Shown: positions 100 through 1,789 of the stretch, in pieces
Layout of the letters: every line of letters begins with the position of its first letter
Numbering within the stretch: the first letter of the stretch is position 1
Source: a virus
Reading direction: 5' to 3' (one strand)
Length of the DNA: 8,526 nt
Virus genome (UHGV): UHGV-1374314
Position numbers and translations under genes: made by a program
Notes under the pieces: model-generated
The model's database searches: none
What the model was told of the DNA's origin: nothing
The model's input: the letters and a program-made list of their open reading frames with translations, nothing else

Positions 100-471
100 T
101 TATAGTTTATTCGTAACCAGCATTTTTTCAGTCGCTATACCACCATGGATAAATCCATATTGGAGCAACCATTTTTGTAATGCGTTCACATCTTGGAATA
201 ACGCTTCAACACCACTAGACTTTGATAGATAAGCAGCAAGATTTCTCTCTGTGCTTTCAAATGGGTCATCAACTTCCATATTAGGATTATTATTGATAAA
301 TACGTACTCACCACTTTCATTTTTTTGTATTGATGCGCTATCAATTATAAGGCTAATGTGTTCATTTATTGCATTAAGCGCTTCAAATTGAATCGTATAT
401 GGAAAGTTTCTTAAATAGTGGCTTCTGATTATGTCGTATATTCCTTGACGGCTATAAAGTTGATTTTTCAT
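100..471 (-). CDS. Hypothetical protein, 123 aa, acidic, no predicted TM segment (accessory gene A)
   Basis: Intact ORF with ATG at 471 preceded on the minus strand by GAGGAGTAAGG. AT-rich (about 30% GC in a sampled 60-nt stretch). No family recognised by eye. Confidence 0.6.
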   Translation of the reverse strand: MKNQLYSRQGIYDIIRSHYLRNFPYTIQFEALNAINEHISLIIDSASIQKNESGEYVFINNNPNMEVDDPFESTERNLAAYLSKSSGVEALFQDVNALQKWLLQYGFIHGGIATEKMLVTNKL

Positions 472-516
472 CCTTACTCCTCTACTTGTTTTGCTTCGAT
501 ATAAAGTGTATTTAAA

Positions 517-984
517 TCAATATGTTATATGTAAAACAATTTCATTATCATCCTTGAAATCGTCATCCCACATTAGTCTTACAGTAAATTTCCTTGCTCG
601 ACCTAACTCTCCTGACGCAATGAGATCGACTGGTTGATCTGTCGCGAGATACTCAAGCGGAAATTTGCTTTTAACGTCACTCATTGATACTGGTGAATTA
701 TTATCGGGAAACTCTATTCTTACATTTTTCGCAGAAACCTTCCCTTTATTAATAACTCTTAGTTTATATTCTCTATTTCCTACAGAGACCATGCTTGCAC
801 TAATATCAGCTTTCTTTGAACTTTCCAACTCATTTTTTTCTTTAGTAAGTTGGAGATTCGTTAACCTTTCTTGCGCTTCTATTAACGCTTTTTGTCTTTC
901 ATTGAACTTTACGGTTTTAATTGTTGCATAGATTGAGAGAAAAAACGCCAAACCACCAAACACATCGCCAAGAGATACTGTCAT
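517..984 (-). CDS. Hypothetical membrane-anchored protein, 155 aa: N-terminal TM helix, charged probable coiled-coil segment, beta-rich C-terminal domain (accessory gene B)
   Basis: ORF with ATG at 984 and AAGGG about 9 nt upstream on the minus strand. Hydrophobic stretch GGLAFFLSIYATI near the N-terminus, then a K/E-rich segment. The antisense + ORF 665..931 looks spurious. Confidence 0.6.
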   Translation of the reverse strand: MTVSLGDVFGGLAFFLSIYATIKTVKFNERQKALIEAQERLTNLQLTKEKNELESSKKADISASMVSVGNREYKLRVINKGKVSAKNVRIEFPDNNSPVSMSDVKSKFPLEYLATDQPVDLIASGELGRARKFTVRLMWDDDFKDDNEIVLHITY

Positions 985-1095
985 TATTTAACCCTTATAT
1001 GTTTTGACTTACTCTCTATAGTTGATTGCTATTTAACCGCTTGCGGTTCGGGGTTCAGTGACACCCGAACTTTACCGTGGTTTCCCGCGGCGGAG

Positions 1096-1518
1096 TTACC
1101 AGTAATATGACTTTCTTCTGTGCCACCAATAAAGTAGGCCGTATCCGACGATAAGAATCCCGAAGAACATCAGCGACATTCCCCAGCCAGTTCCGTACCA
1201 CGAAACCATATCATCGAAAACTAACCCGCCCATTTCACGAACTCCGGCTGCTTCCTTAAGAATTGGTTTGAATACCGGAATCAGAAGGGCGATCGCAAGT
1301 GGAGCACCCCAGCGAACAAGACCAGTTTCCATTTTGATCCCGAAAAAGATCCCCGCACCGACAACAAGCAACCAGACTATCAGGCCAGGCGCAGTTTCTA
1401 GTGCTGTTTGCCATTCAACATCGAAAGTTTTCATTAGCCAGGCAACAACTGCCAGACAGAAAGCAAATACGCCCACGACAACCAGTTCAACGCCGCTTGT
1501 TTCGTTATTTCTACTCAT
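1096..1518 (-). CDS. Hypothetical integral membrane protein, ~140 aa, about 4 predicted TM helices (accessory gene C); an alternative upstream start at 1665 would give 189 aa
   Basis: Four hydrophobic segments (VELVVVGVFAFCLAVVAWL; GLIVWLLVVGAGIFFGI; WGAPLAIALLIPVF; SLMFFGILIVGYGLLYWW). The internal ATG at 1518 has AAAGG just upstream and avoids overlapping the neighbouring ORF. Noticeably GC-richer (about 50% in a sampled stretch) than genes A and B. Confidence 0.55.
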   Translation of the reverse strand: MSRNNETSGVELVVVGVFAFCLAVVAWLMKTFDVEWQTALETAPGLIVWLLVVGAGIFFGIKMETGLVRWGAPLAIALLIPVFKPILKEAAGVREMGGLVFDDMVSWYGTGWGMSLMFFGILIVGYGLLYWWHRRKSYYW

Positions 1519-1560
1519 CCTTTTGATCCTTTTTCGCTGTTCAAAACTCGCACAATAAAG

Positions 1561-1589
1561 AACGTGCAGTGTTGGTAATACTGCACGTT
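1561..1589 (-). terminator. Perfect 10-bp inverted repeat, candidate terminator for the regulator gene or an operator palindrome
   Basis: AACGTGCAGT (1561-1570) / ACTGCACGTT (1580-1589) with a 9-nt loop. It lies 18 nt downstream of the stop at 1607 and is followed on the minus strand by CTTTATT. Confidence 0.4.
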
Positions 1590-1606
1590 TGTACCATTCG
1601 TGGTAC

Positions 1607-1789
1607 TTAATCCTTTTGTTTGGCAGACATGAGATCTTCTGCTGCATCTTTAGAGTAGTTATCAATCAGATAACCTAAAATCTCTGTCCATGTAATTGTT
1701 TTTCCTAGTTTTACACTGGCATTTATAGCCAGTCGTTCTAGTTTCATTTTTCTTTCTTCCGTCACGTTATAAGTCGTGCGCTTTGCCAT
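1607..1789 (-). CDS. Small putative DNA-binding transcriptional regulator, 60 aa (possible ribbon-helix-helix/Arc-like fold), divergent from gII
   Basis: ORF MAKRTTYNVTEERKMKLERLAINASVKLGKTITWTEILGYLIDNY... shows a short N-terminal strand-like segment followed by helices. Its position and orientation, divergent from the replication gene, resemble repressor genes of integrating inoviruses. Weak RBS. Confidence 0.5.
   Translation of the reverse strand: MAKRTTYNVTEERKMKLERLAINASVKLGKTITWTEILGYLIDNYSKDAAEDLMSAKQKD

Follow-up and report, generated by a model that had tools for sequence, protein, structure and literature searches.

A putative repressor, a membrane protein and exchangeable cargo beside the attachment site of a CUS-1/YpfPhi-type filamentous prophage of Escherichia coli

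The 8526-bp viral sequence UHGV-1374314 (the window, by which we mean the whole stretch of DNA analysed) carries four minus-strand genes, here called A to D, between positions 100 and 1789. They lie between a phage attachment site and the control region of the phage replication gene (Table 1). The window is one unit of an inovirus prophage present as a tandem array in the chromosome of E. coli HUM3355 (99.4% identity over 100% of the length), where three copies of the prophage were found. Prophages of UM146, F11 and many other extra-intestinal E. coli match it at about 99% identity over 88-89%. The plus-strand genes follow the order gII-gV-gVIII-gIII-gVI-gI(zot)-gIV, the canonical inovirus core set; according to the open reading frames (ORFs) and the RefSeq annotation of the HUM3355 prophage they encode a II/X replication protein, a single-stranded DNA-binding protein, the coat and attachment proteins, a DUF5455 protein, a Zot-like assembly protein and a secretin. 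In the relatives the prophage occupies the chromosomal dif site, between hipA and a fimbrial (fim-like) locus. Because of the backbone identity of about 99%, the gene order, the dif/hipA position and the match to the published description of the family, the window is assigned by its sequence to the dif-integrating filamentous prophages of the CUS-1/YpfPhi type. That description includes two directions of transcription, Xer-dependent integration, tandem arrays and an RstR-like gene, together with a pair of attL-side ORFs, without known function, in which YpfPhi and CUS-1 differ (PMC4266046). An earlier interpretation made from the letters of the window (the sequence-only reading) had used Ff/IKe-type phages as its yardstick, which is the wrong family; the attL-side ORFs of the CUS-1/YpfPhi family were already published (PMC4266046).

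Table 1. Features identified at one end of the window, with their coordinates
Feature	Coordinates	Strand	Description and basis
Phage attachment site	1-100	+	Two inverted dif-like XerC/D arms (about 3-30 and 75-100) around a GC-rich stem-loop (24-83)
Gene A	100-471	-	123-aa acidic cytosolic protein; ORF, dN/dS 0.15
Gene B	517-984	-	155-aa protein with N-terminal membrane helix, long helix and C-terminal Ig-like beta-sandwich; ORF, structure model
Scar of a deleted zinc-ribbon gene	985-1042	-	Last ~5 codons and stop (985-1000) joined to the old 5' leader (1001 to about 1042)
Conserved 53-nt element	1043-1095		Two small hairpins; separates the cargo from the stop codon of C
Gene C	1096-1518	-	140-aa inner-membrane protein with about four helices; ORF, hydropathy, GC
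Hairpin between D and C	1561-1589	-	13-bp arms; inverted repeat I3, 92% complementary; T-rich run after it on the minus strand
Gene D	1607-1789	-	60-aa basic RstR-family protein; ORF and tblastn; reads away from gII
Divergent control region D/gII	1790-1958		gII annotated as a replication protein of the II/X family

The four ORFs lie where the sequence-only reading had placed them, and the RefSeq annotation of the near-identical prophage in HUM3355 has all four as well. Hydropathy and isoelectric point (pI) also agree with its descriptions of the products: A is acidic (pI 5.3) and soluble, with no hydrophobic segment; B is anchored at its N terminus, where a single moderately hydrophobic segment opens a helix that the structure model places at residues 5-55; in C, one of three hydrophobic stretches is long enough for two helices; and D is small and basic (pI 9.0). 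The 140-aa form of C begins at the ATG that RefSeq also uses, and its ORF can be extended to a TTG at 1665. The ratio of nonsynonymous to synonymous substitution rates (dN/dS) is 0.09 for B and as given in Table 1 for A, both against 81%-identical plasmid copies described below, and 0.06-0.16 for C against four relatives. These comparisons of coding sequence show A, B and C to be real genes under purifying selection. C has 47.8% GC overall and 46.8% GC at third codon positions (GC3), compared with 33-36% and 27-28% for A and B. The GC contrast that had been reported is thus real, and the mosaicism suspected from it was correctly read. The block had been described as about 1.7 kb of coding DNA; the four ORFs are present, but the coding is not unbroken, being interrupted by a gene remnant, a conserved element and a hairpin (Table 1).

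Scans of A to D against Pfam, NCBIfam and PADLOC returned nothing except a weak match of B to PDC-S57 (E 3e-4, 36 residues), and PHROGs gave families of unknown function only. Neither A nor B matched a toxin or antitoxin family of Pfam, NCBIfam or PADLOC, and A matched nothing at all in these. PDB sequence searches with D and with profiles of B and A were uninformative, and the AlphaFold model of A was unreliable (pLDDT 47) and was left out of the fold search. Neither B nor C had a tblastn match in the phage collection, and only two IMG/VR contigs carried B, both of them the same phage as the window. An Rfam scan of positions 1-2000 found nothing near any family threshold.

The dif-like junction described beside the block is real. 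Two inverted XerC/D-like arms fold together within bases 1-100 as a forked hairpin of -33.1 kcal/mol (DNA fold, z = -8.25, 0 of 200 shuffles as good), also detected as inverted repeat I1. The sequence GGTGCGCATAA within it matches the XerC arm of E. coli dif. The fold predicts that the attachment site forms a forked hairpin in the packaged strand, in the manner of CTXphi, and its inner stem can also serve as a two-way terminator. The stop codon of A abuts the second hairpin arm. At the other edge of the A/B block, 48 bp of the conserved 53-nt element are 95.8% identical to part of the 'major intergenic region' of phage If1. The element is common to the prophage of E. coli 98227, which has a different cargo, and is found in part in an inovirus of Yersinia enterocolitica. 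It was considered as a phage origin or packaging signal and dropped, being absent from UM146 and having no significant structure (z -1.6).

The organization of the block became evident when a query spanning C and D (1096-1916) was searched against 5426 complete E. coli genomes. It was matched in 163 genomes, in only 27 of which were both parts found together. Most of the remaining rows that were sampled had the C part only, with a different 148-aa helix-turn-helix repressor in the place of D (for example UTI89), and some had the D part only. Strain EC23 lacks C and has a Doc-family toxin gene between D and the attachment site. The partial matches to the two units end at query positions 522 and 455 and so overlap at 1550-1617, a recombination joint that contains the hairpin between D and C; this hairpin is possibly a terminator or attenuator, judging from its arms and the T-rich run. 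Moreover, C and D remain about 97-99% identical while unrelated genes replace A and B. With C assorting independently of D, and both independently of A/B, there are three units here and not one module. The view that the four genes form one module was not borne out: C occurs with other repressors, D occurs without C, and A/B are swapped separately. Bases 100-1789 very probably comprise the repressor, a membrane protein and swappable cargo of a known phage family.

The comparison of related inovirus prophages, which had been suggested as a check on whether the block is variable cargo, gave a clear answer for A and B: in eight near-identical backbones, the stretch from the attachment hairpin to C (or D) holds a different gene set each time. 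One breakpoint falls immediately behind the second arm of the hairpin, the other exactly at C's stop codon. The window and HUM3355 carry B-A in this slot. In UM146, representing the CUS-1 type, there is a 159-aa protein with a 91-aa zinc-ribbon protein of the ECs_2282 family. NCTC9104 has an AbiJ_NTD4 plus DUF7014 protein (PADLOC PDC-S32), 1368KP a DUF6953 protein plus a DpnII/MboI-type nuclease (PADLOC Aga_Helical-REase, PDC-S35), C10 a 63-aa protein plus a 'mobilome CxxCx11CxxC' protein, 98227 two unknown proteins of 262 and 94 aa, EC23 the Doc/Fic toxin (PADLOC PDC-S23), and UTI89 an unknown protein of 369 aa (1284-2393, minus strand). Three of these alleles match defence-type domains or PADLOC models and four match nothing known. 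The slot is a true cargo hotspot, with conserved flanks and interchangeable content. The proposal that the cargo is of the exclusion, abortive-infection or toxin kind therefore stands in part: A/B are cargo, and some of the alternatives are defence- or toxin-like, while a defence role is inferred from context only.

Two further observations concern the contents of the slot. A 257-aa cargo protein of the Y. enterocolitica inovirus (6903-7676) is 34% identical to the 262-aa protein of 98227 (1605-2393), so that this cargo type recurs across inovirus lineages. The 369-aa protein of UTI89 has an N-terminal hydrophobic helix and a 'VTNKGKEKEKNVTITIP' stretch that resembles the beta-sandwich motif of B; it was considered as a distant relative of B and dropped (hhalign probability 17%).

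D lies directly upstream of the replication gene gII (1917/1959-3011, plus strand) and is transcribed in the opposite direction. Annotated rstR genes of CTXphi and pre-CTX were among its tblastn matches (41% identical over 95% of D; E 4e-6 to 6e-6). Vibrio phages VAI1/2 gave a match of 42% to their 'RstR-like regulator', and If1 one of 58.5% to a minus-strand ORF that lies unannotated in its 'major intergenic region'. Positions 1-2000 contain a single predicted promoter-like site, upstream of D (1850-1823, minus strand). Because of the homology to RstR, the rstR position and the promoter-like site just upstream, we regard D as a phage repressor rather than a regulator of the cargo; the sequence evidence makes it quite likely that D is the RstR-type repressor and immunity gene of this phage. 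It had been proposed that D is a regulator dedicated to the cargo, which does not agree with its being a homologue of annotated RstR repressors in the position of rstR, and that none of the four genes resembles a canonical inovirus gene. The latter fails for D, as RstR-type genes are canonical in temperate inoviruses. In other family members, of the UTI89 type, it is D that the 148-aa helix-turn-helix protein replaces. It should be noted that the 1.2-kb 'major intergenic region' of If1 (NC_001954) is not non-coding: it holds an unannotated 67-aa homologue of D (5119-5322, minus strand), which adjoins a 48-bp element (5058-5105) matching window positions 1043-1090, and there is an IS200/IS605-like insertion in the region as well.

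C is semi-conserved in CUS-1-like inoviruses, and homologues at 52-99% identity occur across the Enterobacterales. In the Y. enterocolitica inovirus C is found in the same place with other repressor-side genes and other cargo. Scans of Pfam, NCBIfam and PADLOC gave no known family for C, PHROGs only families of unknown function, and no homology to a known exclusion protein was seen. The location of C downstream of the repressor suggests that it is expressed in lysogens, and YpfPhi lysogens are reportedly protected in part from superinfection (PMC4266046). On these two grounds we tentatively propose, as a rather doubtful assignment by analogy, that C might be an inner-membrane exclusion factor against related filamentous phages. 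Solitary chromosomal homologues of C with no phage genes nearby were seen in Lonsdalea quercina (5340-6423, 83%) and Mixta intestinalis (5572-6411, 52%), both with a similar short reading frame upstream (FNIIYI.RT.D.DGRIW.ESL). C may have been captured from host chromosomes, or donated to them.

The history of the B-A cassette could be followed in the same E. coli genomes. DNA of A plus B was present at 99% identity or more in 15 of the 5426, and both genes are intact in all seven of the records listed at that identity. An 81%-identical version was found in 80 more genomes, mostly on large ColV-type plasmids (73 plasmid places) and also on chromosomes. The plasmid operon has three genes, in the order zinc-ribbon (89 aa), B (155 aa) and A (123 aa), and adjoins an ISNCY transposase. 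Two parts of the attachment hairpin, its inner stem and its second arm, persist in the plasmid copy, which is therefore inovirus-derived. Compared with this operon, the window has the layout ...GTCAAAAC / ATATAAGGGTTAAATA / ATG: the leader GCGGTTAAATAGCAATCAAC... matches that of the plasmid, and its end, GTCAAAAC, is fused to the last five codons and stop of the zinc-ribbon gene, ATATAAGGGTTAAATA, which overlap the start of B. The ribosome-binding site of B itself is kept, and the ORFs of B and A are both full and intact after the deletion. By alignment, then, the zinc-ribbon gene has been cleanly deleted in the window, whose cargo is a derivative and not a complete pair. The possibility that B is a toxin held in check solely by the zinc-ribbon protein is excluded, because B is intact in 15 genomes without that gene. 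The 159-aa protein of CUS-1/UM146 is a homologue of B (37% identity, E 1e-33), and its 91-aa neighbour belongs to the same zinc-ribbon family as the deleted gene (51% identity). Since both proteins are homologous to B and to the deleted gene, 'orf1/orf1a' of CUS-1 and the cargo of the window are variants of one system.

A phage-less unit was observed at the chromosomal dif site by hipA in E. coli NCTC9967 (4300-7300), consisting of a partial hairpin, A, B and the zinc-ribbon gene, and an ISNCY transposase. The same unit occurs on plasmid p16_1068_1 (8850-11800), at many other plasmid places and in Raoultella and Klebsiella chromosomes. The unit at dif could be a degraded prophage or a small element using Xer recombination. 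We considered that the cassette might be a passenger inside the ISNCY element and dropped the idea, as homology to the window ends about 60 nt upstream of the zinc-ribbon gene and the insertion sequence is merely a neighbour.

B itself belongs to a widespread family, labelled DUF8453 by RefSeq in one record. A profile of B detected 1068 clusters (E <= 1e-3) among 1.84 billion representatives, and nearly all of the 150 best are about 150-160 aa long. With about 155 aa, an N-terminal hydrophobic helix, the conserved KFNERQK...QE helix and a C-terminal beta-sandwich (by alignment, profile and model), the protein of the window is typical of the family. We surveyed 25 B loci, taking one genome per species, from Gamma-, Alpha-, Beta- and Deltaproteobacteria, Actinomycetota and Campylobacterota. 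In 22 of these 25 loci a protein of about 93 aa with a double CxxC motif is encoded directly upstream, ending at or overlapping the start of B; the other three include one contig end and one partial B. At least one distant homologue of B has no zinc-ribbon gene called upstream and a different gene downstream. Across the surveyed loci the genes that follow B in other taxa are not conserved, and none is similar to A, for which reason they were dropped as candidate relatives of A. Homologues of A form only 14 clusters, all in Enterobacteriaceae and always directly after a B gene. On this comparative evidence the conserved core is the zinc-ribbon gene and B, translationally coupled, with A as a local enterobacterial addition, and it is this core that is broken in the window. 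The unit that had been suggested, a membrane protein with a small soluble partner, is accordingly not the conserved one: that is the zinc-ribbon gene plus B, of which the window has lost the former.

The genomic surroundings of the pair are frequently those of defence genes, of the restriction, Gabija-like and CBASS kinds. E. coli XH1815 carries the pair (with a B of 49% identity) in an SXT/R391-like element, where it directly adjoins the MobH relaxase and has McrBC, a restriction endonuclease and a type I system as neighbours; the same SXT-like arrangement was seen in Shewanella, Marinomonas, Neiella and Pseudoalteromonas. The slot of the pair next to traI matches SXT hotspot 5, a site of experimentally shown anti-phage genes. 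In Alcaligenaceae the pair adjoins IetAS in an integrase island. Matches among the 99 neighbouring ORFs of at least 150 aa within 3.5 kb (21 loci) include type I restriction R subunits (3), GajA (2), AriA/Old-like ATPases, CapP, bacterial HORMA proteins, Cap17-like proteins and Mrr, counts that come without a background rate. In PADLOC, the zinc-ribbon protein of the relatives gave matches to the candidate PDC-M14A (2e-8) and to parts of PDC-S64 and HEC-08. A literature search found no paper on ECs_2282, DUF8453 or PDC-M14.

Several known systems resemble the block in part. The nearest, CUS-1 of E. coli O18:K1:H7 and YpfPhi of Yersinia pestis, belong to the same family and share with the window a backbone of about 99% identity (UM146 type), dif integration via a folded two-arm site, tandem arrays and opposite directions of transcription; the difference is the attL-side cargo, B-A being a third allele. 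As the pair of CUS-1 itself (159 aa plus the 91-aa zinc-ribbon protein) is homologous to B plus the deleted gene, the alleles are not all unrelated, contrary to the review (PMC4266046). The RS2 region of CTXphi (rstR-rstA) has in common with the window a small repressor directed away from the replication gene, interchangeable repressor alleles and immunities, a forked hairpin used by Xer, and accessory genes at the end of the genome. D, however, matches only certain short RstR variants, at 41%, and the cargo of the window lies on the repressor side and is not an animal-host toxin, while CTXphi has no counterpart of C. Inovirus accessory genes that provide toxin-antitoxin, anti-phage defence and superinfection exclusion functions are known from Pf4/Pf6 of Pseudomonas, namely PfiAT, KKP and PfsE (PMC11341870, PMC8764522). 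These modules have no sequence relationship to the window: KKP is a kinase/phosphatase system and PfsE a tiny PilC-binding peptide, whereas the window has a membrane protein composed of helix and beta-sandwich and an orphan acidic protein. Hotspot 5 of SXT/R391 elements is likewise a fixed slot with conserved flanks and interchangeable, mostly defence-type genes, and the zinc-ribbon-B pair itself occurs there; here, in contrast, the slot is in an 8.5-kb single-stranded DNA phage with room for about 1 kb of cargo, and some of its alleles are defence-like, by sequence only. The hotspots of P2 and P4 are further mobile-element defence hotspots with a fixed slot and interchangeable genes. Among candidate systems of PADLOC, the matches to PDC-M14, PDC-S64, HEC-08 and PDC-S57 are confined to the zinc-ribbon or to a helical segment. 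The pair cannot be counted as a PDC-M14 system, since none of the PDC-M14 models was hit by A, B or a homologue of either.

We propose that the stretch from 100 to 1789 serves as the lysogeny and accessory arm of a temperate phage of the CUS-1/YpfPhi family, and give this reading, with the roles suggested for its units, a probability of roughly 0.6. D would act as the RstR-type repressor, transcribed away from the replication gene, and would set immunity; its homology and position are observed, and repression is what we infer from a gene of this kind. C would probably be made in lysogens and would block re-infection by related filamentous phages at the inner membrane. The B-A cargo, derived from a gene pair of a kind typically met in defence islands and in the cargo slots of mobile elements, sits in the slot that runs exactly from the attachment hairpin to C's stop codon. 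Loss of the zinc-ribbon gene would have left B driven directly by the old leader, followed by the enterobacterial add-on A. B would be held in the inner membrane, its helix and beta-sandwich facing the cytoplasm, an orientation (N-out, C-in) that the flanking charges fit, and might be a membrane effector or scaffold for which A, and in complete versions the zinc-ribbon protein, would be a cytosolic sensor or modulator. The lysogen would thereby gain protection and the prophage retention. A small membrane-anchored system of the phage-exclusion or abortive-infection type, in which B is the effector or scaffold and its cytosolic partners sense or modulate, is a plausible identity for the cargo, at slightly less than even odds.

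A number of points weigh against this reading. Its weakest step is the exclusion role of C, which has no direct support: C is found alone in Lonsdalea and Mixta, and some prophages do without it. The defence role of the cargo is guilt by association with no formal background rate behind it, and five of the 25 B loci are near-identical SXT-type elements and not independent. No catalytic domain was recognised in A, B or C. The fold of B is a generic beta-sandwich and the model of A is unusable; the PADLOC match of B to PDC-S57 is as weak as noted above, and A and C have no match. Finally, the window lacks the near-universal zinc-ribbon partner, so that its copy may be disabled or may be doing something different.

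The explanation offered originally was a single co-regulated cargo module of four genes, in which D is the dedicated regulator of one exclusion, abortive-infection or toxin-immunity system. All four genes are indeed on one strand within a 1.7-kb block with short gaps, and since the sole promoter-like site is upstream of D, read-through across all of them is possible. Nevertheless, the homology and position of D are those of RstR, C is found with other repressors and D without C, A/B are replaced while C and D stay about 97-99% identical, A/B are found on plasmids and at a phage-less dif site where both C and D are missing, and GC3 differs sharply between C and A/B. The assortment data largely refute this explanation, which we regard as highly improbable. 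An equally remote prospect is that the cargo is a host-interaction or virulence factor behind the modest fitness gain in animals from CUS-1 and YpfPhi. The family has been tied to small gains in virulence and fitness (PMC4266046), and the copy on ColV-type plasmids from avian and extra-intestinal E. coli has iss close by; but the occurrence of B with the zinc-ribbon gene in Nitrosomonas, Hyphomicrobium, marine Gammaproteobacteria, Deltaproteobacteria and Actinomycetota is a misfit with an animal-host function, and the proteins have no signal peptide and a predicted cytoplasmic topology.

Two other explanations, each unlikely in our judgement, deserve more weight. B-A, and the zinc-ribbon-B pair from which it descends, might be an addiction module resembling toxin-antitoxin systems that stabilizes a prophage, plasmid or island, with B as a membrane toxin and its partner as the antidote. 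Small, translationally coupled genes that are frequent on large plasmids would suit such a module, as would the presence of Doc toxin and other toxin-like genes in the same slot and a faint likeness of the zinc-ribbon protein to MqsA-type antitoxin zinc fingers (E ~6e-4 to 1e-3, below the cut-off); stabilization would also be useful, because the episomal form of YpfPhi is unstable (PMC4266046). The presumed antidote gene is nevertheless deleted while B stays intact in 15 genomes, which means that cells survive B in the absence of the zinc-ribbon protein, unless A takes its place, and Pfam, NCBIfam and PADLOC show no known toxin or antitoxin domain in A or B. This explanation also overlaps with the lysogeny and accessory arm proposed above, as most toxin-antitoxin-like pairs in defence islands prove defensive. 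Alternatively, the A/B cassette of the window might be a decaying, non-functional leftover of the three-gene operon that is passively carried. The loss of a partner present in 22 of 25 loci elsewhere would be expected of such a remnant, and the allele is so rare (15 of 5426 genomes) and so nearly invariant that selection after the deletion is not measurable. A clean deletion that keeps the leader, the ribosome-binding site of B and both full ORFs argues against decay, as do the intact A and B of all seven listed records and the existence of at least one distant B homologue that also has no zinc-ribbon gene called upstream.

Some features of the backbone were noted in passing. At the other end of the prophage, past the secretin gene, two small conserved plus-strand ORFs (7832-8140 and 8258-8491) are probably the counterparts of YPO2280a/YPO2281; both are in PHROG families of unknown function, and the 77-aa ORF after the secretin gene has CxxC...CxxC zinc-ribbon features. 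The ORF of gII can open at a GTG at 1917 (364 aa), and its RefSeq homologue begins 42 nt later (a 1053-nt gene). In E. coli EC5502 (NZ_CP092647.1) up to 16 separate matches of the CUS-1 cargo were found in one chromosome, which points to a very long tandem array of the prophage.

The phage, the four minus-strand ORFs and the variability of the attL-side pair were known already. What appears to be new is the multi-allelic slot, several of whose alleles are defence-like, the link between the cargo of CUS-1 and of the window and a widespread pair of zinc-ribbon and DUF8453 proteins that associates with defence islands, and the clean deletion of the zinc-ribbon gene in the window copy. As a speculative extension that we consider less likely than the identity suggested above for the cargo, the zinc-ribbon protein and B might constitute a new and very compact membrane-anchored system against phages or mobile elements that is present across many phyla. 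The CUS-1-type slot of about 1 kb would then be a miniature defence shuttle among pathogenic E. coli and Yersinia, and the variant in the window would indicate that the sensor is swappable and the effector B is kept. CUS-1 and YpfPhi are the filamentous prophages associated with high-virulence E. coli K1 and pandemic Y. pestis, and for two decades the ORFs at the end of their genomes have been described as functionless orphans. Should the pair prove active, it would add a very small new system, with a payload of about 1 kb, to the catalogue of defences, and the cargo offers a possible explanation for the retention of such unstable phages.

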